A stretch of 45,557 bases of DNA from Saprospiraceae bacterium (lineage in GTDB: Bacteria > Bacteroidota > Bacteroidia > Chitinophagales > Saprospiraceae): NCBI GenBank assembly GCA_040003045.1, contig JBDUDG010000001.1, positions 1-45,557 of the forward strand. The letters are read 5' to 3'. The notes under the pieces were generated by a model, which had not been told where the DNA came from, made no database searches, and saw only the letters and a program-made list of their open reading frames with translations. Positions 23,434 through 39,331 of this stretch are shown piece by piece. Each line of letters begins with the position of its first letter. The stretch's first letter is position 1. The translations under genes and the position numbers were made by a program.

Positions 23434-23472
23434 TCGATTTATTTGAATTTTAAAAATTCTCCTAAACAAGAA

Positions 23473-24933
23473 TCAATGAGTATCGAAAAACAATTTTGTT
23501 TCCGGTAGATCACCACCAATAGCTGCTGCTGCTGAGGTGTATCCTGGAGGGTTAACTGTTTGTTCGTTTATCGGGTAAGTTAAGCGTGCTGGATAACCTG
23601 AAACCGCAGCATCTGGCAATTTCAGCTCAGGATAATCCAATCTGCGAATAGAAAGCCAACCTTCGAAACCGCGGTTGTAAAATCCAATCCATGCTTGTGT
23701 TCCGATCCTTTGCTGCCATGATCCTCCGGCTGTATTGTACGCTACTGTAGGTTGAGCAAGATATGCATCTGCATCTGCGTCGGTTCCACCCCATTCAAGG
23801 ATTGACAACCTTACTGCGTTGTTGTAATGTTCTTCGGCAGTTCCACCAACATTGTAACCTCGTTCTACTGCTTCAGCCAGAAGGAATTCAGTTTCAGAAG
23901 CAGAGAAGATAGTACCAGGGAATGTTGGTTTTCTTAGTGCCTCATTCACATGTGTGAAACTGCCATAAGTCTCCGTATGGCCAGGTCTGCCGCCGACATA
24001 TTCAACTTCAGGTGTATTTGGATCATCCAGATTTGGTTCGAAGTAATACTCTCTGCGTGGGTCATTCAAAGAATCCAATGCATTTACAAAAGTATTTGTA
24101 ATGATATAATCCTGACGACTTGATAATACCTGGTCAGCATATAGCGGATTAGTATTTGGTGTAGCGCTGAGATAATCCATAGTGGCATTATCATCATTGC
24201 TGAGGATCGGATCTGCAGAACCTGACTCAACCAATTGGTGAGAAAGCGCACTTTCAGAAGGAAGGTCAGCTAAAACCAAACCCATACGAATCTTCAATGA
24301 ATTCGCAAACTTGATCCACTGAGCCGTATTGCCCTGATAGATATTGTCTGAACCAGGTTCGAAGCCACCTACACTTGCATCCATAGCACTTACAGCCGCA
24401 TTAAGGCGGGCTGCAAGGTCTTTGTAAACAGTGAGGCCATCATCATACGCAGGTGTCAGTGTGTTAATATCCAAAGCTTGTGAATAAGGTACGTTTCCGT
24501 AAGTTTCAACAAGGTGAGAATATGTATACACTTCCAACAATTCAATCAACGCGAGCTTATTCACCTTTGCTTTAGCCTGATCATCGGAAAATGTAATCTC
24601 ATCCGTAATCAATCTTGCAGATTCCTTGAAGTTAGCTAATGAACGTCTGTATAACTCATCCCAAACCTGTTGAGAAAGATTACGCGTGGTGACGTCAAAA
24701 TTGGCTTCTTCTGTGTAGGTCGTTTCTGTCCAATACTGATCCCAAAACCGGTAGGCGTTGTAATTGACATTGGTTGAAACGATTTGATCCGTCATGTTCT
24801 TCTGCGCAGATGTGAACAGTGATTCACCGCTGACAGCAATCGGATTCTTTTTATCGACATTTAGATCCGCCAGGTCCGTGCAAGCCGTAAGGAAGGCAAA
24901 ACATAACCCAAGGATTAGAAATTTATTTTTCAT
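23473..24933 (-). CDS. SusD/RagB-family outer-membrane lipoprotein (pair 2)
   Basis: 486 aa. Lipoprotein signal MKNKFLILGLCFAFLTAC, and it aligns in blocks with the 440-aa paralogue (e.g. GNVPYSQAL vs GDIPYSEAL; WIKFANSLKIRMGL vs WLGFANGIQARVNL). It lies 11 nt downstream of SusC-2. Confidence 0.85.
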   Translation of the reverse strand: MKNKFLILGLCFAFLTACTDLADLNVDKKNPIAVSGESLFTSAQKNMTDQIVSTNVNYNAYRFWDQYWTETTYTEEANFDVTTRNLSQQVWDELYRRSLANFKESARLITDEITFSDDQAKAKVNKLALIELLEVYTYSHLVETYGNVPYSQALDINTLTPAYDDGLTVYKDLAARLNAAVSAMDASVGGFEPGSDNIYQGNTAQWIKFANSLKIRMGLVLADLPSESALSHQLVESGSADPILSNDDNATMDYLSATPNTNPLYADQVLSSRQDYIITNTFVNALDSLNDPRREYYFEPNLDDPNTPEVEYVGGRPGHTETYGSFTHVNEALRKPTFPGTIFSASETEFLLAEAVERGYNVGGTAEEHYNNAVRLSILEWGGTDADADAYLAQPTVAYNTAGGSWQQRIGTQAWIGFYNRGFEGWLSIRRLDYPELKLPDAAVSGYPARLTYPINEQTVNPPGYTSAAAAIGGDLPETKLFFDTH

Positions 24934-24944
24934 ATTTCTATTGA

Positions 24945-27900
24945 TTAGAATTTAACTTTTAGATTAAATGACAAATCCCTTACTGATGGCAATGAAGAGG
25001 TGGTCACTCCCTGAAGATTTCCGGAACCTAAACCTGCTTCAGGATCGGCGTATGGAATATTCTTGGAGATAATCCAAAGATTGGTGCCCACTAAACTCAG
25101 TTGCAAATCTTCAAAGATGGATTTATTCGTAAAGCTCTTAGGGAATGAATAGGTAAGAGCTACTTCACGAAGCTTCACATAGCTAGCGTCATAAACAAAA
25201 GCGACATTAGGCTGTGCAGCATAACCGGCTGTATAAGTATTGCTTCCATCTACGCGGTAAGTGTTCGGAGTTCCGTCGGCATTTACACCTGGATAAAGTA
25301 CACCACCTGATGTTGCATCCGCTGTGACCGGATCCCGGATAGGGTTGCCAAGTTCGTTGTTGCCTGCAGATTCTTCATAAAGACCTGTTCCTGCTGCATA
25401 CCATTGGTCGATCGAGAAGATAGAACCACCGTGTTGGAAGTCAACAAGGAAGCTTAAATCAAAATTCTTGTAAGAAAGTTTGTTGCTGATACCACCTATC
25501 CAATCTGGATTAGGATCACCTATGAGAAGATCTGAAGCAGCTGTTCTCTGATAGTTGCCTTTAGCAGCACCGCTGGCACGAACCAACTTGTTGCCATTAG
25601 CATCATACACATAATCTTTTCCAAACAGAACACCATATGGCAAGCCAATTTTAGCATTGACAGTTACACCACCTTGGAATGAACCTAATTGAATGTTGGT
25701 CAAGCCTTCTGTCAATTCTTTTACTTCATTTTGATTTTTGGTCCAGTTGAACATCACAGACCAGTTGAAATCTGTTGAACGAACAGGAACAACATTCAAA
25801 GTCACCTCAACACCTCTGTTTTCAATATTACCTGCATTAACAGTTTTGAAAACATAACCTGTAACAGAAGAGGTTTTGATTGGCAGAATTTGGTTGATCG
25901 AATTTGTTTTGTAAAGAGCGACATCAAATCCAAGACGATCAAGGAAGAAGCGCATTTCAAGACCAGCTTCATAACCTTTGGTACGTTCAGGTTTAAGTTC
26001 AGCATTCTTCTTTGTGTTTGGCAATGAAGAACTTCCACCATTGAAGCCAGTATTTACGATGTAAGCATCCCGGAGGTTGTTAAAGCCACCCGGAGCTCCC
26101 ACTTCTGCATAGTTGAGACGCAGTTTACCAAATGACAACCAGTCGTTTTCAATCAGGTGACTGAACACGAAGCTACCGGAAACTGAAGGATAACTATATA
26201 CTGCATTTGCTACGGGCAGTGTGGAAGATTTGTCAAAACGAATCGATCCATCTACATAAAGGAAATTGTCATAGCCAAGTGATACGCTACCGAAATAACC
26301 ATTGATACCAGTACGCTCATCTCTTTCGATTGGAAGCGGAAGTGGATCTACTGTATTCTGAAGAGCATATAATCCGGGTACTACAAGACCGCCATTCGTT
26401 GCTGCAAAAACAGAATTGAATTTTGTTCTGCGTATGCTGGTTCCAAGAAGACCTGTCAAATTGAATTTATCGGTAAGATCTTTATGGAAATTAAGGAACG
26501 CATCGAAGTTGTTTTCATTTGCTACGATGTCTCTTCTTGAATATCCACTTGGTGCATCCAGACGACCGATACTACCATCGACACGGTCTGTTCCGATACC
26601 AAAACGATTAGGCACTGAACCTACTGCAAGTCTTTGCTCCTGAAACTCATCATAAGTATCAACAGAAGCGCGACCGAACACGCTCAGCCAGTCTGATAAT
26701 TTGTATTCAGCAGTCACATAACCTAACAAACGGTTACGGCTGTCATTTTCATAGTTCTCATATTGTACCCAGTATGGGTTGTCCCAATAGATAGGTTGGC
26801 CTGAGAAAGGTGCTGACCAGTTCCATGTCTGGTTTTCCTTAGTCTTTTCGTAAAGGTCCTTGAGCTCAGTGATATCTACATTTGATTGCCACCACTGTCT
26901 CATGCTGCTTAATACACCATTGGAGTACCCTGTACCATTACGTCCGAGGGCATCAGTACGAGTATAGTCAGCTAAACCTGATACTGTCAGACGATCTGTT
27001 ACTTTCAAAGTAGTCTTGGCAGAAAAGTTATTTCTCTTCAGCCAGCTGTTTGGAAGTAAACCATCATGATTGTAATTAGTGAATGCCAATCTGAAATCAC
27101 CTGAATCATATGCTTTATCAACAGCCAGTGTGTTGGTCAGCGTGATAGGTGTTTCGAAAAATTCAACTGGATCATGTGCAGCCGCTACCCATGGTGTAGC
27201 TGTTTTGTAGTTAGGAGAAGCGGGCACGAATGCATCCCACTGATATATCAGTTTGGACGCATCAAATGCACTTCCATAAGAAGCATCTTCTGTAAGTGGA
27301 ACGACTTTATCATCGACACCATCGCCATTTACATCATACAGAATAAAACGGTCAGCTGTGTCATAGAAATCACCATATCCTGCACCGTATTTTTTCTGGT
27401 ATTTAGGAAATGTGCTCCTGTCAACACTACCGACAGATATGTTTGAATTTAAAGTAACGCCTACTCCACCTCCTCTTTTTGAACCGCCTTTGGTAGTGAT
27501 CATGATCACACCATTAGCAGCACGGGAGCCATAGAGAGCAGTTGCGGCAGCGCCTTTCAATACGTTGATGGAAGCGATGTCTTCCGAGTTGATATCTGAT
27601 GCTGCGTTTCCAAAGTCGTAGCCTGGAGTACCTTGTTCCTGGGCACGAGTATTTGTGTTCCTGTTAGCGATGGGTACACCATCGACAACGAAGAGCGCCT
27701 GGTTGTCACCACTTAGGGAGTGGATACCCCGGATGTTGACGTTTGTAGAACCACCCATGTTGGTGTTTCGACGGATTTGTACGCCAGAAGTCCGACCTGA
27801 CAATGCATTCAGGAAATTGTCGGATTTCACAATGTTTAAGTCTTCCCCACTGACTTCCTGGGTGGCATAACCGAGAGATTTTTTCTCACGGGTGACTCCA

Positions 27901-28217
27901 AGAGCTGTTACCACCGCTTCACTGAGGACAAGGCCCTCATTCATGGTGATATTCATTGTGGAAGAACTGCCGACGGTGATTTCCTGAGTAGAATATCCTG
28001 TGTAGGAGACTACCACCTTATCGGAACCGTTGGGTACTGTGAGACTGTAATTCCCGTTAAAATCAGACACCGTACCAACGGACGTCCCTTTAACCTGGAT
28101 ATTTGCTCCAATCAGAGGACTGCCTTTGTCATCTGTTACCATACCGGAAACAGATCTCTGGGCAGAGAGCTCCAATGTCATGAGCACTAAGGAAAAAAAT
28201 AGTAATAACTTCCTCAT
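24945..28217 (-). CDS. SusC/RagA-family TonB-dependent outer-membrane transporter (pair 2)
   Basis: 1090 aa with the same architecture as pair 1: VSGMVTDDKGSPLIGANIQVKGTSVGTVSDFNGNY, plug VLKGAAATALYGSRAANGVIMITTKGG, barrel ending ...SFNLKVKF. Confidence 0.95.
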   Translation of the reverse strand: MRKLLLFFSLVLMTLELSAQRSVSGMVTDDKGSPLIGANIQVKGTSVGTVSDFNGNYSLTVPNGSDKVVVSYTGYSTQEITVGSSSTMNITMNEGLVLSEAVVTALGVTREKKSLGYATQEVSGEDLNIVKSDNFLNALSGRTSGVQIRRNTNMGGSTNVNIRGIHSLSGDNQALFVVDGVPIANRNTNTRAQEQGTPGYDFGNAASDINSEDIASINVLKGAAATALYGSRAANGVIMITTKGGSKRGGGVGVTLNSNISVGSVDRSTFPKYQKKYGAGYGDFYDTADRFILYDVNGDGVDDKVVPLTEDASYGSAFDASKLIYQWDAFVPASPNYKTATPWVAAAHDPVEFFETPITLTNTLAVDKAYDSGDFRLAFTNYNHDGLLPNSWLKRNNFSAKTTLKVTDRLTVSGLADYTRTDALGRNGTGYSNGVLSSMRQWWQSNVDITELKDLYEKTKENQTWNWSAPFSGQPIYWDNPYWVQYENYENDSRNRLLGYVTAEYKLSDWLSVFGRASVDTYDEFQEQRLAVGSVPNRFGIGTDRVDGSIGRLDAPSGYSRRDIVANENNFDAFLNFHKDLTDKFNLTGLLGTSIRRTKFNSVFAATNGGLVVPGLYALQNTVDPLPLPIERDERTGINGYFGSVSLGYDNFLYVDGSIRFDKSSTLPVANAVYSYPSVSGSFVFSHLIENDWLSFGKLRLNYAEVGAPGGFNNLRDAYIVNTGFNGGSSSLPNTKKNAELKPERTKGYEAGLEMRFFLDRLGFDVALYKTNSINQILPIKTSSVTGYVFKTVNAGNIENRGVEVTLNVVPVRSTDFNWSVMFNWTKNQNEVKELTEGLTNIQLGSFQGGVTVNAKIGLPYGVLFGKDYVYDANGNKLVRASGAAKGNYQRTAASDLLIGDPNPDWIGGISNKLSYKNFDLSFLVDFQHGGSIFSIDQWYAAGTGLYEESAGNNELGNPIRDPVTADATSGGVLYPGVNADGTPNTYRVDGSNTYTAGYAAQPNVAFVYDASYVKLREVALTYSFPKSFTNKSIFEDLQLSLVGTNLWIISKNIPYADPEAGLGSGNLQGVTTSSLPSVRDLSFNLKVKF

Positions 28218-28700: not shown

Positions 28701-30167
28701 TCAGAATTTAATCAGCTTCAAACTATTAATCTTGTTTTGGTGTGATATTTTTAAAAAATAGACTCCGCTGCTCCATCCAGTATTGTCAATTTGAAATACC
28801 GACTCATTAAAATTATCGTGTAACACTTTATGATAAACTATTTGCCCGCCAATATCGAATATCTCGATTTTTGATCCCTGAATTATATCATTTCCAATCA
28901 GTGTCCATGCATACATCGAAGGATTAGGGAAAACATGTAGAGATTCATTCCTCACTTCTCCTGTACTTGTGGATACTTCATAAGTGCCCCATCTAAATTC
29001 TACTGTGCCCGAGTTGTAATCTTCCCAAACGACAATAATATTACCATTTCGGATAGCTACATCTGTATTGAAGACACCATTCGTAGCCACTGTATCGAAT
29101 TCAGGCTGATGTCCGGATGTAACATTGGTAGTGAGGCTGATTAAGGCCTGATCATTTCCATTGATATTTTGCTTCCAGGCGATCGCAACCGAATTACCAG
29201 ATGATGAGATACGTGGAAAATTTTGCTGTGTTGATCCGGGCAATGCGCCTGTCACAAATGATCCTGGTAGTGATGCAAAGTCTGACAAGGAGGCTTGATT
29301 CTTATACACTCTGGCTGTACCGCTTACAGCATTCATGAATGTTGAATAAAGCGTATCACCTATGATTACGGCATCAGGGCCTGAGGAAGGACAAGCATTG
29401 ATCATCCAGTTTTGTTGATCAATATTGATACCTGAAGTGAATGACAATCCTCCATCGGTAGATAATGCAGCCCATGTATCCCTGATATTATTATTGTTGT
29501 CACGATATAGCACTACAACGTTATTTCCGGAAGCCACAATAGATCCGGGACAGCAATCGCATACGACCGAAGTGGGACTGCTCAACCTGCTGGCCAATAC
29601 GTCTTCTGTAAATGAATTTCCAAAATCATTTGATCTTGTCACAGCCCACTGTGCTTCTGAAAAGCCAGATTCAAATTTCATAAATGCAATCACTGGTTGG
29701 CCTGAAGCATCCGCGGTGACAGTAGGAAATCGTGAAAGACTATCGCCTGTAGAATCTACACTGACAGGATTAGAAAATGTCTCCCCTGCATCGAAAGAAT
29801 GCAGGCACCAGATATGGCCAGTATTTTCAGGTACTTCCTTGAACACCACATAAACTGTATCTCCGGAAGCCGCAATATCAGGACCCATCCAGCTGGCTCC
29901 TGCTGAAGTGATTGAAGGATTCAATATTTTTGAAGGTTCAAATTTACCATTGTGCCATCGCGAAAATCTGATGGCACCAGCATTAAACCAAATGATCATC
30001 GGGTTACCTGTTGCATCCATTGTGATCCTTGGGTGGTTATTGCCATGATTGGATTCATCTACTGATCCCTCCATTGTCCAATTGATCTGGCATTGAGAAG
30101 ATGAGTAAAGGAATGACAAAAAGAAAGTAAATAATAGAATTCGAATTACGGTGGGCGAGATTGTCAT
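28701..30167 (-). CDS. secreted Asp-box (BNR) beta-propeller protein, sialidase-superfamily-like, T9SS type A cargo
   Basis: 488 aa. Signal peptide, and three Asp-boxes (SFDAGETF, SNDFGNSF, STDGGLSF). Seven blade-like repeats follow the pattern (F/H)P.(I/V)..(D/S).SG..(V/I)(I/V).(W/F), e.g. HPRITMDATGNPMIIWFN, RFPTVTADASGQPVIAFMK, NFPRISSSGNSVAIAWKQ. A C-terminal sorting domain is present. Confidence 0.8.
   Translation of the reverse strand: MTISPTVIRILLFTFFLSFLYSSSQCQINWTMEGSVDESNHGNNHPRITMDATGNPMIIWFNAGAIRFSRWHNGKFEPSKILNPSITSAGASWMGPDIAASGDTVYVVFKEVPENTGHIWCLHSFDAGETFSNPVSVDSTGDSLSRFPTVTADASGQPVIAFMKFESGFSEAQWAVTRSNDFGNSFTEDVLASRLSSPTSVVCDCCPGSIVASGNNVVVLYRDNNNNIRDTWAALSTDGGLSFTSGINIDQQNWMINACPSSGPDAVIIGDTLYSTFMNAVSGTARVYKNQASLSDFASLPGSFVTGALPGSTQQNFPRISSSGNSVAIAWKQNINGNDQALISLTTNVTSGHQPEFDTVATNGVFNTDVAIRNGNIIVVWEDYNSGTVEFRWGTYEVSTSTGEVRNESLHVFPNPSMYAWTLIGNDIIQGSKIEIFDIGGQIVYHKVLHDNFNESVFQIDNTGWSSGVYFLKISHQNKINSLKLIKF
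28704..28940 (-). other. T9SS type A C-terminal sorting domain
   Basis: The last 79 aa are LHVFPNPSMYAWTLIGNDIIQGSKIEIFDIGGQIVYHKVL...WSSGVYFLKISHQNKINSLKLIKF. The FPNP start, the (I/V)(F/Y)D..G. core and the GVYF(L/V)K ending are typical of Por-secretion CTDs. Confidence 0.75.
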
Positions 30168-30213
30168 GATCCAAATTTACGACGTAAATGAGAAAATCTT
30201 TACCCATCTCACT

Positions 30214-30237
30214 GTTCGCGGTCAGAGACACGCGAAC
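30214..30237. promoter_or_regulatory. GC-rich inverted repeat in the divergent promoter region
   Basis: gttcgcg (30214-30220) / cgcgaac (30231-30237) form a 7-bp stem with a 10-nt spacer. It sits between the divergent starts at 30167 and 30329. Confidence 0.3.
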
Positions 30238-30250
30238 GTCCGTGATTTTT

Positions 30251-30285
30251 TACCTGTTACCAAATACCGTTTACCGTTTACTGAT
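30251..30285. repeat. five consecutive heptads starting TAC(C/T)
   Basis: TACCTGT TACCAAA TACCGTT TACCGTT TACTGAT read directly from 30251-30285, 44-78 nt upstream of the ATG at 30329. Confidence 0.6.
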
Positions 30286-30328
30286 ATTCGATTGCTACAT
30301 TTAGGCTTGATTCGGTGAAAGTATTCTT

Positions 30329-32080
30329 ATGACAGAAAAAAAACAAAAAAAGAAGATACCAAGCCCGGTAAAGGCGAGCGGAATAAGGTCTAAAGTCCGC
30401 TTTGATTATTCAGTTACTACAAAAAAGTATGTTGGTCCTCTTGGCTTCGGAGTAATCGTCACAGGGCTGCTGCTTGTCTTCAGTATTTTTAAAAATATAT
30501 CTCATCCCCTTTTCTGGGCAGATGAAAGTATGACTGCAATGGGCTCAGAAAGAGTGATCCATTATGGATATCCAAAAGTACATGATGGGAAAAATGTGTT
30601 TTATGATTTACGGCACAGCAACCCCACGCTTGGAATTAATGAGAAAAATGACGCTTATGTAGGTGGTGCCGGATGGCTTCAGTACTATTTTGGAATTATC
30701 GGATATAAGCTTGCTGCCACTTCTGATGATTTGTTTACAAAAACAGGGATTTACAGATCCACATTTGCAACTGCAGGTTTGTTGGGTCTATTCCTCTTCG
30801 GATTTTTAATTTCACGTTTGTTTGCAGATCAGTTTTCACGGTATGCATTTTTATTTTTATACTTTCTGCTCGAGTTATTTTCAGTTTCTTTAGCCTTATT
30901 GCTGAGGGAGGTGAGGTACTACTCTTTGGTCATGTTGCTGACCTCTATTATTCTGGGAATGTATTCTTTGTACCGGTTTCGCGGTTCATTTAATAAGATT
31001 GGTTTTACTGTCTCGGTATCGATTGCATTATGGCTACTCTTCAACACGTTTGCGCCTGTTTATTTCATCCTCGCTGCTTCAATTGGCGCATCCGAATTAA
31101 TCATGGTGATCGGTCAGGGCATTAAATCAAATCTGAAGAAATCCATCCTGGAAGCTTTGCCTGTAATTATAGCACTCCTTATTTCTTTTATGGCCATTAT
31201 ACCTCTAATGTCTTATTTCAGGACATTTGAAATATCAAAGGCAATGAGTGATTTTAATAATTATAATAATGAGATATATAAAACCAACCTGGCAACTGTG
31301 TTTAACTATTTTAAAAATTTTGAATTGTTGTGGTTAATGTTGCTTTTAAAAATCCTGATGGCTACCCAGTTCAGGTCAATCCTGAAAGAAAAATCTCCTG
31401 CGTTTAAAACTTCTTGTTTTCTGACACTGGTTTTCATCCTATTTGTGTTCGCCATTTCTAAAATTCCCAATTTCATTTATACTCGGTACATTATTTATAT
31501 GCAGCCTGTACTGGTGGCGATTATTCTTATTGATTTCTTTACGGTCATAAGGCAATTCACGAAGGGAAGTGAAAAAATGTGGCCGATTAAATTATGGATC
31601 CCGGTAGCGGCGTTTATATGCGGATTTTTTCTGATGGTGTTAGAAAATTTCAACTATATATCGGGCCACGTTTATGAATTGACTCATATCTATAAAGGGC
31701 CATTAGATTATACAATCCCTTATCTTAAAGAAAAATATCCACAATCAGATTCACTGGTTATAGCTGCTAATTACGAAGAGACGTCCTACATGTATTATCT
31801 CAATAGTAAGGTGATCATGGGTTTTGCGGGCAATAATTTACAGCAAGATTCGATTAAACAGCCGGATGTAATAGCATACCGGAAAACATGGGGTAATAAT
31901 GCAAGCATTTACAACAAATTTTTATCGATGGCACCTTTTGAGCCTGAAAAATTTCCTATAAAAGACAATCCTGTCAACAATATACCTGAGCTCAATTTCA
32001 GGCCTGCCTTTAATCACCAATTCAGGACATTGCTGCCAGCAGATGAGAAGGATGCGACGTATCTGTACATCAAAAAATAA
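30329..32080 (+). CDS. large polytopic membrane protein, putative GT-C-fold glycosyltransferase (family not recognised)
   Basis: 583 aa with ATG start and a Lys-rich cytoplasmic tail MTEKKQKKKIPSPVKASG. After TM1 comes LFWADESMTAMG (D65-E66), then ~11 further hydrophobic segments and a ~130-aa soluble C-terminal domain. There is no KPPL motif. The coding call is strong; the functional call is inferred from architecture. Confidence 0.5.
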   Translation: MTEKKQKKKIPSPVKASGIRSKVRFDYSVTTKKYVGPLGFGVIVTGLLLVFSIFKNISHPLFWADESMTAMGSERVIHYGYPKVHDGKNVFYDLRHSNPTLGINEKNDAYVGGAGWLQYYFGIIGYKLAATSDDLFTKTGIYRSTFATAGLLGLFLFGFLISRLFADQFSRYAFLFLYFLLELFSVSLALLLREVRYYSLVMLLTSIILGMYSLYRFRGSFNKIGFTVSVSIALWLLFNTFAPVYFILAASIGASELIMVIGQGIKSNLKKSILEALPVIIALLISFMAIIPLMSYFRTFEISKAMSDFNNYNNEIYKTNLATVFNYFKNFELLWLMLLLKILMATQFRSILKEKSPAFKTSCFLTLVFILFVFAISKIPNFIYTRYIIYMQPVLVAIILIDFFTVIRQFTKGSEKMWPIKLWIPVAAFICGFFLMVLENFNYISGHVYELTHIYKGPLDYTIPYLKEKYPQSDSLVIAANYEETSYMYYLNSKVIMGFAGNNLQQDSIKQPDVIAYRKTWGNNASIYNKFLSMAPFEPEKFPIKDNPVNNIPELNFRPAFNHQFRTLLPADEKDATYLYIKK

Positions 32081-32179
32081 ACATCTTGTATCTTGAGCCT
32101 TGTGGAAGGTCCTTTGGATTTTCAGATCTTAATACCTTCAGGCATGATGTCCGTCCTTTCTACATCTTAACACTATCGA

Positions 32180-34222
32180 ATGAACCAAAAAAAACAAAAA
32201 CCAACAGGTAAGCCAAAAAAGAAAGTTGCAGCGGAAAGAGTTGTTGCTGCTTCTCCTGCAAAAGAACGCAAAGCTGAATTTGAATTGATCCACTTCGACA
32301 CCAAAGTGTGGATTTTTATTGGCGCCTGCACATTTCTATTTTTTCTATTCGTTAGTTTGAAATGGCATAATTCATCGATTCCTCATTGGAGTCAGGTTGT
32401 ACCGGATGGCGGAGATCCGAACCGGGGGTTGGTAGCAGGTGAACCATTGTTCATCAGATCGGATGAATGGCTGGTGTATACCAGTTTTATATTGTCACAG
32501 GGGAGATTAGGATTTCCGGTTTCGAATGAGGCCTGGGGTGCGGGCAAATCACCATTGACATTTGGACTACCCACGAAAAATTTAGTGAGTGTCATTAAGC
32601 CATCCTTTTGGGGATACTATTTTCTTGATCTGGAAAGAGGTTTTTCATGGCATTGGAATTTCAGGATCTGGCCTTTTCTGATAGCTTCATTCCTGCTACT
32701 TATGCTCTTTACAGGGAATAATTTTTTGATAAGTGTTTTTGGCAGCTTATGGCTATTTCTGTCTTCCGCTATACAATGGTGGTCTATGAATACAGAGATA
32801 TTTACCTTTGGAAGTATAGCCGTTATTTCCTTCATTTATATCTTATATTCAGAAAAGCCCAGAACAATCCTGATCAATGGGATACTATTTTTGATATTCT
32901 CCTTCTCATTTGTCACCGTACTTTACCCTGCTTACCAGGTCCCTATGGCGTATTTTTTATTGGCCCTGATAGTTGGCTACCTTATTAAAAATAAAAACAC
33001 GACTAAATTAAAGTATAAAATAAATTTACCCTGGAAATTAATGGCACTGGGTGGAAGCTTGTTACTGTTGATAGTATTAATCTTAATGTTTTACCAGGAG
33101 ACAAAAGATACAATACATCTGATGTCCGATACTGTGTATCCAGGAAAACGTGATGAAAGGGGCGGAGACTTCGTGTTCTTAAAATTATTTGCGGATAATT
33201 TTGGCATGTTCATGGATATCAATAAATACCCTGCAAACTGGGGCAATATCTGTGAAGCATCAGCCTTCCTTATGCTGGCTCCATTTACGTCAATTATTAT
33301 TTTAATTGATTTTATTAAGACCAAAAAGGCAGATCCTTTGCTTATCTCCTTGTTGATATTTCAATTCGCGATGCTCGTCTGGATGTTAATTGGATTACCT
33401 GGAATTCTGGCCAAAATCACTCTATTAAATACGAGTCCTACCTATCGCACATTTTTCATTTTTGGCTTCGCTAATGTGATCACCACAATCGTATTTATGG
33501 CTCATCATAAAAATTCTATTTTAAAGAATACTCTTGTGACTAAAATTATTTCATTTGTAATTATTGCCGGACTTGTTTTTTCAATTAATTACTTTCTGAA
33601 TAAGCAGGCGAATACATTTTTTACCATGCCACAGGTATATAAATCAACAATCATATTGACTGGTCTTATTTGGTTAATGCTGTTTTTCAATTTTAATAAA
33701 ATATTCAAAATATCTTTTTTTGCACTTGGCTTACTTATCATTCTTCCCAATATCAAAATCAATCCGTTGAGTGTAGGTTTGTCTCCATATTATGACAACG
33801 TCGTATATAAAACCGTAACGGAGGTTGAGAAATCAGATCCCGGACAGGGTTGGATTCTTTTTGGCAAATTCACCTATGGTAATTTTCTTAAAGCGGCAGG
33901 CGTGAAATGCTTTAACGGTAATCAATGTGTGCCGCCTTTTGATAAACTTAAAATATTAGATCCTGAAATGAAAAGCGATAGTATTTATAACCGGTATGCT
34001 CATATTGATGTGCTTCCATTTATTGATGCTGATTCTGTTAAGTTTTCTTTAGTACAGAATGATCGCTATACCATAAAGATGGATCCATGTTCGCCCCGCA
34101 TTGTTCAGATGGGTATTAAGTACATCGCGTTCACATATCAGCCACAGCCTATTGAAGTGGAATGCATGACTGAGGTCAAAGAAGCGCCTGGACTATTTAT
34201 CTATAAACGAAATGATTTATGA
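32180..34222 (+). CDS. large polytopic membrane protein, putative GT-C-fold glycosyltransferase (family not recognised)
   Basis: 680 aa with ATG start and a Lys-rich tail MNQKKQKPTGKPKKKVAAER. After TM1 the external loop reads GEPLFIRSDEWLVYTSF (D95-E96). Many TM segments follow, then a ~140-aa soluble C-terminal domain. Its stop overlaps the next gene's start (ATGA). Confidence 0.5.
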   Translation: MNQKKQKPTGKPKKKVAAERVVAASPAKERKAEFELIHFDTKVWIFIGACTFLFFLFVSLKWHNSSIPHWSQVVPDGGDPNRGLVAGEPLFIRSDEWLVYTSFILSQGRLGFPVSNEAWGAGKSPLTFGLPTKNLVSVIKPSFWGYYFLDLERGFSWHWNFRIWPFLIASFLLLMLFTGNNFLISVFGSLWLFLSSAIQWWSMNTEIFTFGSIAVISFIYILYSEKPRTILINGILFLIFSFSFVTVLYPAYQVPMAYFLLALIVGYLIKNKNTTKLKYKINLPWKLMALGGSLLLLIVLILMFYQETKDTIHLMSDTVYPGKRDERGGDFVFLKLFADNFGMFMDINKYPANWGNICEASAFLMLAPFTSIIILIDFIKTKKADPLLISLLIFQFAMLVWMLIGLPGILAKITLLNTSPTYRTFFIFGFANVITTIVFMAHHKNSILKNTLVTKIISFVIIAGLVFSINYFLNKQANTFFTMPQVYKSTIILTGLIWLMLFFNFNKIFKISFFALGLLIILPNIKINPLSVGLSPYYDNVVYKTVTEVEKSDPGQGWILFGKFTYGNFLKAAGVKCFNGNQCVPPFDKLKILDPEMKSDSIYNRYAHIDVLPFIDADSVKFSLVQNDRYTIKMDPCSPRIVQMGIKYIAFTYQPQPIEVECMTEVKEAPGLFIYKRNDL

Positions 34223-35160
34223 TCGTTTCCGTTGTGATACCATGCTATAATGTGTCGAGACACATCGAACAGGTCATCAGGGAATTGCCTGAATCAATTA
34301 CTTATATCATCACTGTTAATGATTGTTCTAAAGATGATACAGAAAATATTCTGGTTAGACTTGCACCTGTAAACCAAAAAATCATTTATATCCCACACCC
34401 TGCAAACCAAGGGGTAGGTGGTGCCCTGATCACTGGCTACATAAAGTCAATGGAACTGAACTCTGATATAACGATTAAAATCGATGGTGATGGTCAGATG
34501 GATGCTTCATACATTGATGCAATGATCGAACCGCTCATCACCGACAAAGCAGATTTTACAAAAGGGAACCGCTTCAGGGATTTCAATGCACTACGAAAAA
34601 TGCCCCTGTCCCGAAGGTTTGGTAATCTTGGTCTTAGTTTCTTGATCAAGGCCGCATCAGGCTATTGGAATATATTTGATCCTAACAATGGTTTTACAGC
34701 CATAAAAAATGAAACACTTAAAAGCATTGATTTAGATAAAATACACAAAAGATATTTTTTTGAATCATCCATGCTGATCGAACTGTACCATGCAAATGCT
34801 GTCGTTCAGGATATATCAATGAAAGCCAGGTACGGTGATGAAATATCAGGTTTGTCTGCGACAAGATCTTTTTTTGAATTTCCGCCTAAACTTTTTGCAG
34901 CATTTATCAAACGTATCCTTCTAAAATATTTTCTATTTGAATTTAATATTGCCTCTTTGTATATTTTATTTGGAGTACCTCTTTTTTTTGTAGGCTTCAT
35001 TTACGGGTTGGTCAATTATATAAAATATGCGAGTAACCATTTACCTGCTCCGACCGGAACTATAGTAATTCCTACATTACTGATTACGCTTGGTTTTCAA
35101 TTGCTCCTGTCTGCCGCCAATTATGATATCGGCAATTATCCTCAAAAAAATAAATCTTAG
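34219..35160 (+). CDS. GT2 polyprenyl-phosphate sugar synthase (GtrB/ArnC/DPM1-like)
   Basis: 313 aa. Motifs VSVVIPCYNVSRHIEQVI, NDCSKDDT, IKIDGDGQMD and KGNRF are present, plus two C-terminal TM helices (LYILFGVPLFFVGFIYGLVNYI; IVIPTLLITLGFQLLLSAANY). This architecture is characteristic of lipid-phosphate sugar-forming GT2 enzymes. Confidence 0.8.
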   Translation: MIVSVVIPCYNVSRHIEQVIRELPESITYIITVNDCSKDDTENILVRLAPVNQKIIYIPHPANQGVGGALITGYIKSMELNSDITIKIDGDGQMDASYIDAMIEPLITDKADFTKGNRFRDFNALRKMPLSRRFGNLGLSFLIKAASGYWNIFDPNNGFTAIKNETLKSIDLDKIHKRYFFESSMLIELYHANAVVQDISMKARYGDEISGLSATRSFFEFPPKLFAAFIKRILLKYFLFEFNIASLYILFGVPLFFVGFIYGLVNYIKYASNHLPAPTGTIVIPTLLITLGFQLLLSAANYDIGNYPQKNKS

Positions 35161-35201
35161 TTCAATTCCCATATTTTCAATCTTTCCATGTTGCACGTTC
35201 T

Positions 35202-36083
35202 ATGAAAATTTCAATCCTCATACCTGTCTACAATGCAGAAAAATATCTGGAGGAATGTATTGTTTCTGCTTTAGATCAAACGTATCGCGATATAGAAATC
35301 ATAGCTATCAATGATGGCTCAACAGATGGATCACTTTCGATTTTGGAAAAATATTCTACTCAAATCCGAATCATCAATAAGACGCAAGGCGGTGTGGCAT
35401 CAGCCAGAAATGCAGGAATTAAAATAGCAACAGGCAAATGGATTAAATTGCTTGACAATGATGATGTGCTTTATCCCGAAGCACTGGCCGAAATGATACT
35501 TGAAGCCGGAAAAATAGATGTAGAAGATAAAATTCTTTATTCCAATGTAGACTATATAGACGCTACAGGAAAGGTGATCGGACATCTGAATGAACCTAAC
35601 TATAATGGACTAAACGATTTCGAACGGAATACAATTTTACTTGATCATAATATTGGCATACCTTCTACATGGCTAATACATAAATCGGTCATTGAGCATT
35701 GTGACCTGTTTGATGAAATCACTGAACATGATGATTATGAATACCATTTAAGAGTATGCCTGCTTTATAACTGCAAGTTCCATCTCGTGGAAAAGAAAAC
35801 GGTCAAGTACAGATTTCATGCGCAACAATTTACATGGCAGGTCATGCGTAAATTTCAAAACCAGGATGTATTGGTCACCAATATTCTGGCGAAGCTAGAT
35901 GAAGATGAAAGAAAAAGGTACCAGAAAGCATTAATCCACCTTAGAGCAAATCGATCTTTATTTGAAAAAACGGCCCATTGGATTAAGCCTGTTTTGAAAT
36001 ATATGCCCATTAAACTTGAAATCCGTTTGAGAACTATTTATCTGCAAATAGCAGAAAACAAAAAATCCAAATCAAAAAATTAA
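35202..36083 (+). CDS. glycosyltransferase family 2 (soluble, GT-A)
   Basis: 293 aa with ISILIPVYNAEKYLEECIVSALDQTYRDIEIIAINDGSTDGS and a DxD-type LLDNDDV motif. Confidence 0.85.
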   Translation: MKISILIPVYNAEKYLEECIVSALDQTYRDIEIIAINDGSTDGSLSILEKYSTQIRIINKTQGGVASARNAGIKIATGKWIKLLDNDDVLYPEALAEMILEAGKIDVEDKILYSNVDYIDATGKVIGHLNEPNYNGLNDFERNTILLDHNIGIPSTWLIHKSVIEHCDLFDEITEHDDYEYHLRVCLLYNCKFHLVEKKTVKYRFHAQQFTWQVMRKFQNQDVLVTNILAKLDEDERKRYQKALIHLRANRSLFEKTAHWIKPVLKYMPIKLEIRLRTIYLQIAENKKSKSKN

Positions 36084-36109
36084 ATACTGCTTTTGTAGCC
36101 TTCGCATCC

Positions 36110-36412
36110 TCAGATCTTTATTCTGTGATAGTAAATTGCCTGCCCTGTAGGCAATTTTTGTAATACACCAGGTTTATCTCTAAAAAACAGATCTACTAAT
36201 TTTTTGGTTTCCGCATAATCAAAAAAACCATAATCATCCAGAAGAATAATTCCATCATTTACCAATCGTGGCAAGAAGAATTCAAGTGCGGCAAGAGTAG
36301 GCTGCGAAGAATTCAAATCAATATGTAAAAACATAATCTTATCCGGCGGTGAATCTATGAACGTATCAGGAACAAATCCTATATGATATTTAATGATGTC
36401 CTTAAACTCCAC
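36110..36412 (-). pseudogene. C-terminal remnant of a TylF/MycF-type (macrocin-O-methyltransferase-like) SAM methyltransferase
   Basis: The ~100 codons match only the C-terminal half of the family (GFVPDTF...IMFLHIDLNSSQPTLAALEFFLPRLVNDGIILLDDYGF). The track start is GTG, and the first ATG is 27 codons in. The frame is closed by a stop at 36476-36478, inside the 3' end of the upstream gene, so there is no room for the SAM-binding N-terminal half. Confidence 0.5.
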
Positions 36413-36432
36413 CAGATTTTTAATTATATTAT

Positions 36433-37386
36433 TTATTTCGTACTGTAATAAACAACTGTGTCGCCTTTCATCGATTCATTCAATCGCAAAGCTTCCTTCC
36501 GGTATGAAGCTCGTTTGGCGGAAAATAACACGTTGAGCAAACTCTTAATTGGACCTTTTTTAGCTTCGCGCATTGAGATATTATGCATGTAATTTTCAGA
36601 TACATAGAATTGCTCATCTCTCGAGTCACAATAAATACCAGCCTGTGTCAACCCGGCTTTGTCCAACATCATTTTGATTCCCTGTAAAGATTGAAGATGT
36701 AAATGTCTTGGGGCATCAAGCTGGAACCAATTTTCCGCGTACCTACCAAATGAATAAGATACCAGTGGTGTTCTGATGAGGATGGTTCCGCCATATTTAA
36801 GATGCATTTTGGCCATCTTTAATGTTTTAACCGGATCAGGTGTATGTTCAAAGGAATGATGAAACATAATCAAATCAAACATTTCACTCTCTGGCAGGTC
36901 TTCTAAATTAATTCTCCTGATATCAACAGGATAGATTGATTCTCCAATAAACGGATCTATACCCATCAAATTCGTGTACCCCATTTTTTTTAGCATAAAT
37001 AATAGATGTCCCGCACCCGACCCAACATCTAAAATACGCCAGTGCTTCGGAGGTGATAACTTACCAATAGATAAAAGCGAGTAATCATAAAGTGCGTAGT
37101 GATCTATAAGCTTGAATAGCAATCCTCTTCTGTGAAATGAGCTTTTTGAAATAATATCAAAATAAAATGAAAATAATTTATTCTTTATCGAAACCGAAGA
37201 AAAGGAATAATATTTCTTGTCGGGATAATATTGGCCCAGGTTTTCCGGGATCTGATTTATTTGAATGGATTGGCAATGATTGCAAAAATCGTATTGAAAC
37301 TCATCACGCATCCCTAACTGCATTTCCCTTACCACGAATGATCTGAAATCTGACGTATTATCACATATTTTACAAGTATAATTCAT
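36433..37386 (-). CDS. class I SAM-dependent methyltransferase with N-terminal Cys4 zinc-ribbon
   Basis: 317 aa with CKIC...CNHC near the N-terminus, SAM motif I ILDVGSGAGHLLFMLKKMG, and a downstream FDLIMFHHSFEH / GGTILIRTP pattern. Confidence 0.8.
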   Translation of the reverse strand: MNYTCKICDNTSDFRSFVVREMQLGMRDEFQYDFCNHCQSIQINQIPENLGQYYPDKKYYSFSSVSIKNKLFSFYFDIISKSSFHRRGLLFKLIDHYALYDYSLLSIGKLSPPKHWRILDVGSGAGHLLFMLKKMGYTNLMGIDPFIGESIYPVDIRRINLEDLPESEMFDLIMFHHSFEHTPDPVKTLKMAKMHLKYGGTILIRTPLVSYSFGRYAENWFQLDAPRHLHLQSLQGIKMMLDKAGLTQAGIYCDSRDEQFYVSENYMHNISMREAKKGPIKSLLNVLFSAKRASYRKEALRLNESMKGDTVVYYSTK

Positions 37387-37460
37387 AATTTAAAATGAAC
37401 TTTATCAGTCATAAAAATGGAAAATGATCGCTTAGTTTCCATGTTGCGAAATTAAATTTT

Positions 37461-37468
37461 TATTTTTG
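37461..37468 (+). promoter_or_regulatory. candidate -7 promoter box for the 37502-40929 operon
   Basis: tatttttg matches TAnnTTTG, 34 nt upstream of the ATG at 37502, in a 115-nt divergent intergenic region. Confidence 0.35.
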
Positions 37469-37501
37469 CATTGAACCTCATTCTTCTTTTGACCAAAAGC
37501 A

Positions 37502-38296
37502 ATGCCCGACCATTCTTTTGCCGTTATGGCTTACCACGATTCCCCATATCTTGCTGCATGTCTGGAGTCATTAAAGGCCCAGATTGTCAAAAGTGAAATA
37601 TACATTACTACATCTACGCCATCTTCCTTTATTGAGAATATAGCCAGGAAATACGAAGTTGAACTTTTTATTACAACAAAAGGACAAGGTATAGCGCATG
37701 ACTGGAACTTCAGTCTAAACATGGCCAAAACCAAATATGTAACTCTGGCTCATCAGGATGATCTGTACCATAACGCGTATTCAACAAGTTGTATTAAGGC
37801 AAGCGAAAAGTATAGAGATACTTTAATCTGTTTTACCGGATACGACGAAGTAATAAACAATGCTAAAAGAACACGAACACTACTATTAAGTGTAAAAAGA
37901 TTGATGCTCAACTCTGCTATGCCAATTACTAATTACATTCATAGTAAAATCAGGAAGAATTTACTTCTGATCGCTGGTTGTCCTATCGCAGCTCCGAGTG
38001 TAATGTTTAATCTGGAACTTTTAAAGGATTTTCAATTTTCCTCTGAATTCTCAATCAATATGGATTGGGATGCCTGGTTCAGATTAGCGAATGTGGAAGG
38101 GAGATTTGTCTATGTAAAAAAGGTACTACTCACCCACAGAATACATCCTGGATCCGCCACGACAGCAGGATTAAAAGCAAATACAAGACAAGATGAAGAT
38201 TTGAAAATATTCAAACGATTTTGGCCGAATTTACTTGCTAAGTGGTTGGCGAAGATTTATGCAAAAAGCTACAAATCGAATATTGACACAGACTGA
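37502..38296 (+). CDS. glycosyltransferase family 2
   Basis: 264 aa with FAVMAYHDSPYLAACLESLKAQ at the N-terminus and a HQDDLY acidic motif, a pattern seen in GT2 enzymes of polysaccharide loci. Confidence 0.7.
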   Translation: MPDHSFAVMAYHDSPYLAACLESLKAQIVKSEIYITTSTPSSFIENIARKYEVELFITTKGQGIAHDWNFSLNMAKTKYVTLAHQDDLYHNAYSTSCIKASEKYRDTLICFTGYDEVINNAKRTRTLLLSVKRLMLNSAMPITNYIHSKIRKNLLLIAGCPIAAPSVMFNLELLKDFQFSSEFSINMDWDAWFRLANVEGRFVYVKKVLLTHRIHPGSATTAGLKANTRQDEDLKIFKRFWPNLLAKWLAKIYAKSYKSNIDTD

Positions 38297-38308: not shown

Positions 38309-39331
38309 ATGAATTCAAAATTTCTGTCCATCGTAAAATATATTGTCCTGCTTGGGGTTGCATTTGCTTTGCTTGCTTTGGCATTTAAAGGGATAAGTGT
38401 GTACGCCATACTGGACGAAATGCTGCAGGCAAAATTATCCTGGTTACTCCTTGCAATCATTATCAGCCTTACGGGATTTGTCAGTCGTGCAATTCGCTGG
38501 AAGTTACTGATTGAATCATTAGGCTATACACCATCCTTAAAGAATACAACTGCTTCCCTGATGGTCGGATATTTTGCAAATCTCGCTTTACCCAGGCTAG
38601 GAGAGGTGACACGATGCGGAACATTGAGCAAAGCTGAGTCGATTCCATTCAGCAGTTTGCTGGGTACAGTCATCGTAGAGCGGGTCATTGACGTCCTCAG
38701 TCTGCTTATACTATTATTCCTTTCATCACTCCTGGAAATAGACCGGTTAGGAAATTTCTTACACGCCAATATCATTCAACCACTTGGAGAAAAGCTTCAA
38801 AATGTCATGTCATCACCAAAGACAATGACTATTGTTATAATTCTTTTCATCGCGCTACTCATGACTATTTTCATCATCATGAGACGATCAAAACAAAATA
38901 AAGAAGAATCAAAAATTATTCATCTGATCAAAGGTCTTTTGAGTGGATTGCAATCTGTAACAAAACTTAAACGACCCTGGCTATTTATTTTTCATTCTGT
39001 CTTTATCTGGTTTCTTGCATTCCTTGGGATGTATGTCAGCTTCCAGGCATTGCCGGCGACAAGTGATTTGGATATAACTGCAGCTTTATTTATCCTGGTC
39101 ATCAGTGGATTAGGCATGGCAGCTCCGGTACAGGGTGGAATAGGAGCTTTTCATTTATTGGTTTCGCAGGGATTGACCTTTTATGGCTTGACTCAAAAAG
39201 ACGGTCTGGCATTTGCAACTTTGGTGCACACACTTTCACTGGCTTTGGTAGTACTATGTGGAATTACTTCGTTGATATTTCTTTTTTCAACTAATAAAAA
39301 ACGTTTAAACGAAAGCAAGCTTCAACAATAG
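38309..39331 (+). CDS. UPF0104 / lysylphosphatidylglycerol-synthase-TM-region family protein (flippase-like domain)
   Basis: 340 aa with ~8 TM segments. It has the characteristic RAIRWKLLI motif after TM2 and LPRLGEVTRC, and lies 12 nt downstream of a GT2 gene. Confidence 0.7.
   Translation: MNSKFLSIVKYIVLLGVAFALLALAFKGISVYAILDEMLQAKLSWLLLAIIISLTGFVSRAIRWKLLIESLGYTPSLKNTTASLMVGYFANLALPRLGEVTRCGTLSKAESIPFSSLLGTVIVERVIDVLSLLILLFLSSLLEIDRLGNFLHANIIQPLGEKLQNVMSSPKTMTIVIILFIALLMTIFIIMRRSKQNKEESKIIHLIKGLLSGLQSVTKLKRPWLFIFHSVFIWFLAFLGMYVSFQALPATSDLDITAALFILVISGLGMAAPVQGGIGAFHLLVSQGLTFYGLTQKDGLAFATLVHTLSLALVVLCGITSLIFLFSTNKKRLNESKLQQ

Follow-up and report, generated by a model that had tools for sequence, protein, structure and literature searches.

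Two adjacent polytopic proteins head a four-gene operon

The window analyzed here, a stretch of 45,557 nucleotides (nt) from the Saprospiraceae bacterium assembly GCA_040003045.1 (contig JBDUDG010000001.1), carries two adjacent genes for large polytopic membrane proteins. An initial annotation, made from the sequence alone, had been unable to place them in a named family and had raised the possibility that they are GT-C glycosyltransferases. Both open reading frames (ORFs) were found on the forward strand exactly as annotated, at 30329-32080 (protein 1, 583 amino acids) and 32180-34222 (protein 2, 680 amino acids). Their homologues are referred to below as family 1 (FAM1) and family 2 (FAM2), and the homologous loci by numbers with the prefix L.

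The pair had been placed at the head of an operon that also encodes a lipid-phosphate sugar synthase, and the gene order bears this out: protein 1, protein 2, and two glycosyltransferases of family GT2, GT2a and GT2b, follow one another on the forward strand. A 99-nt gap separates the genes of proteins 1 and 2, the start codon of GT2a (34219-35160, 313 amino acids) overlaps the stop codon of protein 2 by 4 nt (ATGA), and 41 nt lie between GT2a and GT2b. GT2a is thus translationally coupled to protein 2. The last of the four genes, GT2b (35202-36083), encodes a soluble protein of 293 amino acids that matches Pfam Glycos_transf_2 (2.5e-35) and has no transmembrane segment. Scans of positions 30000-37600 for sigma-70 promoters and intrinsic terminators remained at or below shuffle expectation, the sigma-70 consensus being different from the one used by Bacteroidota promoters.

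The architecture described for the two proteins was largely recovered. Each begins with a tail rich in Lys and Arg, with nine (protein 1) or ten (protein 2) Lys or Arg among its first 30 residues, and ends in a soluble C-terminal domain, at about residues 440-583 and 527-680, respectively. The acidic loop motifs are present as HPLFWADESMTA in protein 1 and PLFIRSDEWLV in protein 2. Their putative catalytic pairs are D65-E66 (FWADES, 30521-30526) and D95-E96 (IRSDEW, 32462-32467), both on the forward strand. From hydropathy and AlphaFold2 (AF2)/DSSP strings, about 11 and about 13 transmembrane helices were counted in proteins 1 and 2, respectively. The 11-13 segments announced beyond the first hold for protein 2 (about 12), while protein 1 has slightly fewer (about 10). 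As reported, the KPPL-type motif is absent from both proteins and present in the ArnT-like proteins of the window; the latter, however, number three and not two, with Pfam PMT_2 genes at 14332-15993 (reverse strand), 16677-18344 (forward strand) and 41709-43385 (reverse strand, 3.4e-13). The common architecture of proteins 1 and 2 does not extend to sequence: hhalign detected no kinship between them (7%), therefore the resemblance exists at the fold level only and the two are not paralogues.

Both proteins are predicted to adopt a GT-C fold

AF2 models were built from 36-sequence alignments and reached a predicted local distance difference test score (pLDDT) of 89.6 for protein 1 and 90.7 for protein 2, with a predicted template modeling score of 0.89 for each. 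The N-terminal tails are disordered in both models (pLDDT below 50) and the rest is confident. Foldseek comparison of protein 1 with the Protein Data Bank (PDB) returned GT-C enzymes for 18 of the 20 top matches, among them ALG12, ArnT, ALG9, AglB, PglB, AftA, STT3, DPY19, Pmt4 and EmbA (probability 1.0, E-values down to 8e-6). Template modeling (TM) scores were 0.41-0.57 among the top twelve and 0.49-0.53 to ArnT. The two other proteins in the top 20 are transporters with a probability of about 0.15, like the transporters further down. For protein 2, 11 of the 12 top matches and all high-probability ones were GT-C (PglB at 2.6e-4, AftA, ArnT, EmbA/B and STT3; probability 0.95-1.0), with TM scores of 0.31-0.41 for the best six. 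These lower scores make protein 2 a more divergent representative of the GT-C fold than protein 1. Both proteins combine the 7-13 transmembrane helices typical of the GT-C superfamily with a structural likeness to its solved members, less marked for protein 2, and the high-probability matches of both are GT-C only. The two proteins are thus predicted to be of GT-C fold, as had been suspected.

The likeness to GT-C enzymes might reflect no more than the general shape of helical bundles, in which case the two proteins would not be enzymes at all and would act, for example, as transporters or scaffolds. The identity to every solved structure is indeed low (8-15%), and the TM scores of protein 2 are modest. 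However, transporter folds were matched with a probability below 0.2 and TM scores of about 0.1, against probabilities of 0.95-1.0 for the GT-Cs. The invariant acidic dyad with its Arg/Tyr constellation in external loops, the sequence link of protein 1 to PMT_2 and the recurrent linkage to lipid-sugar synthases across lineages, all described below, also speak for enzymes. We therefore regard a generic helical-bundle artefact as highly improbable.

Protein 1 is a remote relative of the ArnT/PMT_2 lineage

Protein 1 and 35 of its homologues gave no Pfam or NCBIfam match, even at E ≤ 1, which agrees with its description as unplaceable, and single-sequence and profile hidden Markov model (HMM) searches of PDB chains with both families yielded nothing meaningful. 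The Pfam PMT_2 model (PF13231; gathering threshold 26.1 bits) is matched by the three PMT_2 proteins of the window at 48-57 bits, but gave no match at E ≤ 1 with either protein or with the 36 + 36 family members scanned.

A bridge between family 1 and PMT_2 is provided by a 582-amino-acid protein from Omnitrophota (L038:3502-5250). This protein passes Pfam PMT_2 at 35.5 bits and also aligns to positions 39-561 of the family-1 HMM (5.7e-29), retaining the family-1 signatures FWQDE, YGVPKVTDG, RQCRYY, LRYL, YGEYPIMFY and NIPEP. Comparison of family 1 with a 14-sequence PMT_2 profile, built without the bridge, gave an hhalign probability of 88% (E 3e-6, 314 columns), with R386-Y387 of family 1 paired to the conserved "HY" of PMT_2. 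A profile of only three PMT_2 sequences returned 4.7% for family 1, because it is too shallow, and 0.9% for family 2.

When the N-termini were aligned with MAFFT, the dyad of protein 1 shared its column with the DE of each of the three PMT_2 proteins from the window, the L-F-x-x-D-E-x-x-x-A spacing being identical, and HMMER paired the DE of the PMT_2 protein 16677-18344 with the "PDE" of ArnT (5EZM). The window PMT_2 proteins have this DE at residues 54, 33 and 60 and a KPP/KLP at residues 84, 63 and 85, that is, the (E)KPPL some 25-30 residues after the loop-1 DE; proteins 1 and 2 have the DE and lack the KPP/KLP. Taken together, these three independent lines (bridge sequence, hhalign result and dyad alignment) indicate that protein 1 is a remote, highly divergent relative of ArnT/PMT_2. 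The proposal that both proteins belong to uncharacterized families holds as far as function is concerned, but protein 1 is a distant branch of a known lineage and not wholly separate.

The family-1 member P0005, from Ca. Opimibacter skivensis (L005), carries the UniRef label [quoted passage not shown]. As it has no Pfam PMT_2 match at E ≤ 1, the annotation is inconsistent, but the label is explained by the remote PMT_2 kinship of the family.

Protein 2 is a full-length DUF7657/DUF7654 protein

Protein 2, which had also been considered unclassifiable, is a full-length member of an existing Pfam combination. DUF7657 covers residues 46-441 (nt 32315-33502; 1.3e-115, 386.8 bits for a gathering threshold of 26 bits) and DUF7654 covers residues 537-677 (nt 33788-34210; 9.8e-33, 113.3 bits for a threshold of 27 bits). 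All 36 aligned homologues of protein 2 match both domains, and protein 1 matches neither. There is no NCBIfam model for protein 2, and a literature search for DUF7657 returned nothing relevant. No remote homology to PMT_2 was detected for family 2 with the 14-sequence profile (hhalign 5.6%), and a deeper search that started from the DUF7657 members of greatest divergence recovered DUF7657 proteins only, with no bridge to another Pfam family.

An essentially invariant acidic pair lies in the predicted first external loop

Conservation was determined by aligning all available homologues, 260 for family 1 and 132 for family 2, to the family HMMs and counting ungapped sequences. The acidic pair proved essentially invariant in both families: D65 is found in 255 and E66 in all of the 256 family-1 homologues, D95 in all 132 family-2 homologues and E96 in 129 of them, the remaining three having Asp. 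The Lentisphaerota-type subset of family 2, at only 17-22% identity to its reference, shows the dyad without exception.

In the AF2 model of protein 1, the dyad is located at the N-terminus of a helix (residues 64-79) directly after the first transmembrane helix (TM1, 27-54). In protein 2, the external loop 60-163 follows TM1 (41-59) and contains a helix (94-109) at whose N-terminus the dyad is found. Loop statistics across the families are consistent with a cytoplasmic N-terminus, the tails averaging 4.9 (family 1) and 6.1 (family 2) Lys or Arg, and in protein 2 these residues are commoner in the short cytoplasmic loops than in the short external ones. This topology, in agreement with the positive-inside rule, predicts that loop 1 and the C-terminal domains are outside. 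Both proteins thus present conserved acidic residues in what is predicted to be the first extracytoplasmic loop after TM1, as GT-C enzymes do.

Further near-invariant residues were identified. In family 1 these are K83, R143, R196-Y197-Y198, R386-Y387 and D402, together with a heavily conserved C-terminal domain (G457, D460, Y482-E483-E484, Y490, R518 and N550). Family 2 features R93, W201, Y249, Y320-P321-G322-x-R324, G328-G329, N356, E359, R423, N528-P529, R605 and D628. Judging by their conservation, these positions are candidate phosphate- or acceptor-binding sites.

Family 2 is linked to a probable polyprenyl-phosphate sugar synthase

GT2a matches Pfam Glycos_transf_2 and resembles the DPMS/GtrB/AglJ/PpgS group. 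Its best PDB match is the Pyrococcus dolichol-phosphate (Dol-P)-Man synthase 5MLZ (6e-9), in NCBIfam it comes closest to the Dol-P-hexose synthase AglJ and the polyprenyl-phosphate (polyprenyl-P)-GalNAc synthase PpgS, both below cut-off, and its C-terminal transmembrane segments form a hairpin. GT2a is therefore a probable polyprenyl-phosphate sugar synthase.

The linkage to GtrB-like genes, which the initial annotation had singled out for examination, is strong for protein 2. Of the 19 family-2 loci with enough flanking sequence, 16 have a co-directional GT2 gene adjoining that of family 2. Loci with an adjoining GT2 are L001-L006, L008, L020, L025, L028, L031, L040, L054, L057, L058, L059 and L063, and those without are L061, L062 and L023. 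The arrangement recurs in Saprospiraceae, Cytophagales, Chitinophagaceae (including the isolate Longitalea luteola) and two metagenome contigs. GT2a and protein 2 thus display the association of a GT2 polyprenyl-phosphate sugar synthase with a neighboring GT-C that characterizes three-component glycosylation systems.

Accessory genes of the homologous loci point in the same direction. L059 contains rml genes, a DUF7657 gene and an AglJ-like GT2 (245 bits), followed by a pair of short EamA proteins (115 and 110 amino acids), whose best NCBIfam matches are ArnF (8e-5) and ArnE (1.2e-9), respectively; by its gene content this is an ArnC/ArnT/ArnE-F layout. In L063, a DUF7657 gene is accompanied by a 236-amino-acid GT2 and a DUF2304 gene, with epimerases nearby. 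DUF2304 is the GacJ/Rv3632 family, whose members bind and stimulate the undecaprenyl-phosphate (Und-P)-GlcNAc synthase GacI and the polyprenyl-P-GalNAc synthase PpgS, which in turn feed the GT-C enzymes GacL and Rv3779 (10.1101/180810; PMC3485146). In Longitalea (L057), the DUF7657-GT2 pair lies within a polysaccharide cluster comprising Bac_transf, GT4, RgpF, ABC2_membrane/ABC_tran and Wzy_C genes.

A candidate for the flippase of the lipid-linked sugar is the LPG_synthase_TM/TIGR00374 "flippase-like" membrane protein encoded at 38309-39331 on the forward strand (Pfam 1.8e-36; TIGR00374 64 bits for a cut-off of 43.2). This gene is present in ten family-2 loci (the window, L004, L005, L008, L020, L023, L025, L040, L054 and L058), and in L059 the ArnE/ArnF-like pair stands in the equivalent place after the GT2 instead. 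The candidacy is drawn from this co-occurrence. A literature search for LPG_synthase_TM/PF03706/TIGR00374 in a flippase role returned nothing relevant, and TIGR00374-type proteins are not known to flip Und-P-sugars.

The presence of PglB, AglB and STT3 among the top structural matches of both proteins raises the question of whether the donors could instead be polyprenyl-diphosphate-linked oligosaccharides, transferred en bloc as by oligosaccharyltransferases (OSTs), ligases or polymerases. The WWDxG motif is absent from both proteins, which makes an OST-like function (STT3/PglB/AglB, GT66) unlikely, and neither has a Pfam STT3 match. Enzymes using monophosphate donors (ArnT, ALG9/12, AftA, Emb, DPY19 and PMT) score equally well or better, and the conserved partner is a monophosphate-sugar synthase of the DPMS/GtrB/PpgS type, with ArnE/F- or GacJ-type accessories. 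We thus consider en bloc transfer improbable.

Gene contexts of family 1

The surroundings of family 1 are more varied. In L050 (Woesebacteria), an array of RmlD, FAM1, PMT_2, FAM1, PMT_2+TPR and GT2::GtrA_DPMS_TM genes was found, and in L030 (Nitrospirota), FAM1 is directly followed by a GT2 amid genes for TPR proteins and a methyltransferase. A Methyltransf_23-like gene directly precedes FAM1, often with a 4-bp overlap, in L033-L036 and L038, which span metagenome-assembled genomes (MAGs) of Pseudomonadota, delta-type, Thermodesulfobacteriota, Auribacterota and Omnitrophota. The window has a distant homologue 4 kb downstream, a Methyltransf_23 S-adenosylmethionine-dependent methyltransferase (36433-37386, reverse strand; Pfam 8.5e-21) that belongs to the conserved block. 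This association may point to a methylated sugar or acceptor. Orthologues of the third PMT_2 gene of the window (PMT2c, 41709-43385) lie immediately upstream of FAM1 in L011, L016, L020, L025, L028 and L054, resulting in PMT_2, FAM1, FAM2, GT2 clusters.

Some of these contexts suggest that one or both proteins might glycosylate proteins, in the manner of bacterial PMT/TMTC-like O-glycosylation of secreted or type IX secretion system (T9SS) cargo. In favor of this are the distant kinship of family 1 to PMT_2 and the C-terminal TPR repeats of three among the four longer family-1 members that were examined, a feature also of TMTC and PMT_2-TPR enzymes. In L030, FAM1 is flanked by TPR proteins, and the L050 array includes a PMT_2+TPR protein. 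A Por_Secre_tail (T9SS) gene, moreover, is transcribed divergently from protein 1, with an orthologue retained in L002 and L004. Yet protein 1 of the window has no TPR, the T9SS neighbor is kept only in close relatives and may reflect mere synteny, and the family-2 contexts indicate a polysaccharide (the Longitalea cluster, the rml genes of L059 and the epimerases of L063). A protein acceptor, although it retains an appreciable probability, is thus unlikely.

Several other observations were made around these families. Radical-SAM genes, one of them B12-binding, adjoin family-1 genes in three unrelated loci (L007 10017-10961, L056 7073-7852 and L038 5372-6769), and L056 additionally has an adjoining polyprenyl synthetase gene. 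A 573-amino-acid protein of L058 (12498-14219; no Pfam or NCBIfam match), encoded in the DUF7657 cluster of a Chitinophagaceae-like contig, was tried as a member of family 1 and is not one. Beside it lie, at 1196-6798, three tandem proteins of about 613 amino acids, with faint TPR matches only, and a PMT_2+TPR gene. The 573- and ~613-amino-acid proteins may be further unclassified GT-C-like proteins.

Distribution and mosaic divergence of the two families

An exhaustive HMM search with the family-1 profile retrieved 1,051 representatives (50%-identity clusters) at E ≤ 1e-3 and 328 at E ≤ 1e-30, nearly all full-length (520-600 amino acids). Family-1 loci were found in Bacteroidota (Saprospiraceae, Cytophagales and Bacteroidales), Nitrospirota, Omnitrophota, Saganbacteria, WOR-1, Patescibacteria, Myxococcota and other "delta" groups, Thermodesulfobacteriota, Auribacterota and Pseudomonadota, representing, as judged from record titles, at least ten phylum-level lineages. 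All 56 family-1 loci are from MAGs, and the family was found here in MAGs and metagenome contigs only. Family 2 is smaller, and its members come from Saprospiraceae, Chitinophagaceae, Spirosoma and Lentisphaeria/Victivallaceae. Among the carriers of DUF7657 are the culturable Longitalea luteola, a Chitinophagaceae isolate, and Spirosoma sp. KUDC1026.

The adjacency of the two co-directional genes, and the direct succession of FAM1 and FAM2 in 13 of the 16 loci that have both, could indicate obligate partners of one heteromeric GT-C enzyme; heteromeric complexes such as EmbA-EmbB (7bvc) and Pmt1-Pmt2 (6p25) were indeed among the Foldseek matches. However, these 16 are the only ones among the 56 family-1 loci with a family-2 gene, family 2 occurs without family 1 in L057-L063, and each family is widespread without the other. 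In addition, proteins 1 and 2 are not paralogues, unlike the Emb and Pmt partners.

Sequence divergence within the locus also separates the two proteins. Compared with its nearest relatives (L004, L005 and L040), protein 1 is 61-62% identical, against 87-88% for protein 2, 86-90% for GT2a, 83-84% for the flippase-like protein and 77% for GT2c. GT2b and the Methyltransf_23 protein are 87% and 80-82% identical, respectively, to their counterparts in L005 and L040. The T9SS-tail protein encoded upstream is 69% identical and, among these three loci, present in L004 only. Against L001-L003, proteins 1 and 2 are about equally diverged (72/72, 63/63 and 59/62%). The contrast in identity implies that the block from 32180 to about 39330 has a history distinct from that of protein 1, through recombination or transfer, and suggests a breakpoint near 32080-32180. 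At the DNA level, the block of high identity starts in the conserved 3′ end of the protein 1 gene, at about 31664. A breakpoint inside protein 1, at its C-terminal domain, was ruled out, the identity profile per 50 amino acids being alike against all relatives.

This distinct history speaks for a co-inherited functional module made up of protein 2, GT2a and the remainder of the block, with protein 1 as an independent neighbor. The discordance between the two proteins adds to the patchy co-occurrence, and we attach only a small probability to an obligate heteromer.

Other genes of the window

A 100-amino-acid ORF at 36110-36412 (reverse strand), just downstream of the Methyltransf_23 gene, matches only positions 173-240 of 264, in the C-terminal third, of a TylF/Methyltransf_24 O-methyltransferase profile and is probably a gene remnant. 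A 221-amino-acid protein with no Pfam match is encoded at 40936-41601 (reverse strand); in L020, L031 and L054, the gene for a homologue follows closely on the GT2a-like gene. In L058, this position (10014-10625) is taken by another protein, of 203 amino acids, that was not detected as a homologue, and the two gave only weak methyltransferase-like matches (Erm 0.003; MetW 2.7e-4).

The rest of the window (4566-12994 and 18472-28217) fits a Bacteroidota, Saprospiraceae-like envelope region, with an AsmA/YhdP-like protein (820 amino acids), a CHU_C/SprB-repeat T9SS adhesin (1,912 amino acids) and two SusC/SusD pairs. A UDP-GlcNAc 2-epimerase (43592-44671) and a GFO/IDH/MocA oxidoreductase (44708-45523) could be the source of an unusual sugar derived from N-acetylhexosamine.

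Discussion

GT-C enzymes of this type transfer a sugar from a polyprenyl-phosphate carrier to an extracytoplasmic acceptor at the periplasmic face of the inner membrane. Our analysis leads us to favor, as the probable reading, that both proteins are GT-C glycosyltransferases, protein 2 being the transferase arm of a three-component periplasmic module and protein 1 a separate GT-C. In such a module, GT2a would work at the cytoplasmic face, where it would use a nucleotide-sugar to charge undecaprenyl phosphate with a sugar. The lipid-linked sugar would then be flipped across the membrane, here probably by the TIGR00374 protein and elsewhere by an ArnE/F-like pair. Protein 2 would finally move it from the polyprenyl-phosphate carrier to a periplasmic acceptor, most likely a polysaccharide judging by the family contexts. 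In this scheme, D95 and E96 of external loop 1 would be the catalytic or acceptor-activating acids, and R93, Y249, R324 and R423 would bind the phosphate. For protein 1, D65-E66 would correspond to the loop-1 "DE" of ArnT/PMT, and the enzyme probably takes its sugar from that polyprenyl-P-sugar pool or from another one and modifies a different position or acceptor, which may be a polysaccharide or a protein.

Several points weigh against this interpretation. The likeness of protein 2 to solved GT-Cs is modest in both TM score and E-value, and no sequence or profile link of the protein to PMT_2, the PDB, other Pfam families or a characterized glycosyltransferase was found. Its dyad is located about 35 residues past TM1, and a weak MAFFT alignment puts it nearer to the ArnT-like "EKPPL" than to the DE. 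Protein 1, for its part, falls below the Pfam PMT_2 threshold and has no KPPL motif. Linkage to GT2 is not universal: the Lentisphaerota-type family-2 genes of L061 and L062 are orphans, as are many family-1 genes (L007, L010, L064 and the P0056 context), including many from Bacteroidota. The canonical flippase types GtrA, SMR, Wzx and MATE were not seen in the window, and the assignment of the LPG_synthase_TM protein to this role draws on co-occurrence and the family name.

Comparison with ArnT/PMT_2 (PF13231; CAZy GT83/GT39-type enzymes of class GT-C_A; Cupriavidus metallidurans ArnT, 5EZM/5F15) shows that protein 1 shares with these enzymes the GT-C fold, the cytoplasmic N-tail followed by TM1, the external L-F-x-x-D-E-x-x-x-A loop, about 11-13 transmembrane helices and a periplasmic alpha/beta C-terminal domain. 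It differs by an invariant G-x-P-K-x-H-D-G-K-N located 18 residues past the dyad instead of KPPL, by the invariant family-1 motifs REVRYY, YKGPLDY, NYEETSYMYY and NIPE, and by a strongly conserved C-terminal domain of its own. Protein 2 shows no sequence relationship to ArnT/PMT_2.

Three-component periplasmic glycosylation is an established paradigm, represented by GtrA/GtrB/GtrC, ArnC/ArnE-F/ArnT, GacI-GacJ/GacK/GacL, PpgS-Rv3632/Rv3779, CsbB/GtcA/YfhO and the Citrobacter GT136 system (PMC11127046). The loci described here resemble these systems in the GT2 polyprenyl-P-sugar synthase beside a polytopic protein of GT-C fold, in their location within polysaccharide clusters and in the ArnE/F-like (L059) or GacJ/Rv3632-type DUF2304 (L063) accessory genes. 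They differ in that DUF7657/DUF7654 lies outside all characterized GT-C families, that the sole flippase candidate of the window resembles the flippase domain of MprF (TIGR00374), and that up to three GT-Cs (PMT_2c, family 1 and family 2) accompany one synthase in related genomes.

The mycobacterial enzymes AftA (8IF8) and EmbA/B/C are among the best structural matches of protein 2 (AftA TMt 0.37-0.41; Emb probability 0.96-0.99). They have in common with it a periplasmic C-terminal domain, which may bind the acceptor glycan, and the sharing of one lipid-monophosphate donor by several GT-Cs. No sequence similarity was found, however; the Emb carbohydrate-binding modules far exceed DUF7654 in size, the hosts belong to the Gram-negative Bacteroidota and Lentisphaerota, and a GT2 takes the place of a phosphoribosyl pyrophosphate-dependent enzyme as donor synthase.

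A more ambitious reading can be formulated, according to which DUF7657/DUF7654 and family 1 would each found a new glycosyltransferase family. In Saprospiraceae and Cytophagales, they would form with PMT_2 a multi-GT-C periplasmic assembly line, conceptually similar to mycobacterial arabinan/mannan synthesis, fed by one Und-P-sugar synthase, with TIGR00374 as a new class of Und-P-sugar flippase and an undescribed Bacteroidota surface glycan or glycoprotein, possibly methylated, as the product. We consider this reading doubtful as a whole. New CAZy families are still founded on single characterized examples, as was GT136 in 2024 (PMC11127046).

A broad literature search for GT-C enzymes in Bacteroidota returned nothing specific. 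GT-C enzymes decorate lipopolysaccharide, capsules, cell-wall polymers and proteins, thereby shaping antigenic diversity, phage receptors and antimicrobial resistance. Since uncharacterized GT-C families are common, our results should be useful yet unsurprising to glycobiologists: the general mechanism is well known, and what is gained is improved annotation and additional targets, not a new principle. For DUF7657/DUF7654, they provide a testable functional hypothesis that extends to the probable catalytic residues, the synthase of the donor and the accessory proteins, and the recurrent pairing with TIGR00374 suggests a candidate for the often-missing flippase of such systems. For protein 1, a multi-phylum family of about 1,050 clusters, missed by Pfam and NCBIfam, can now be recognized as a remote branch of ArnT/PMT_2.

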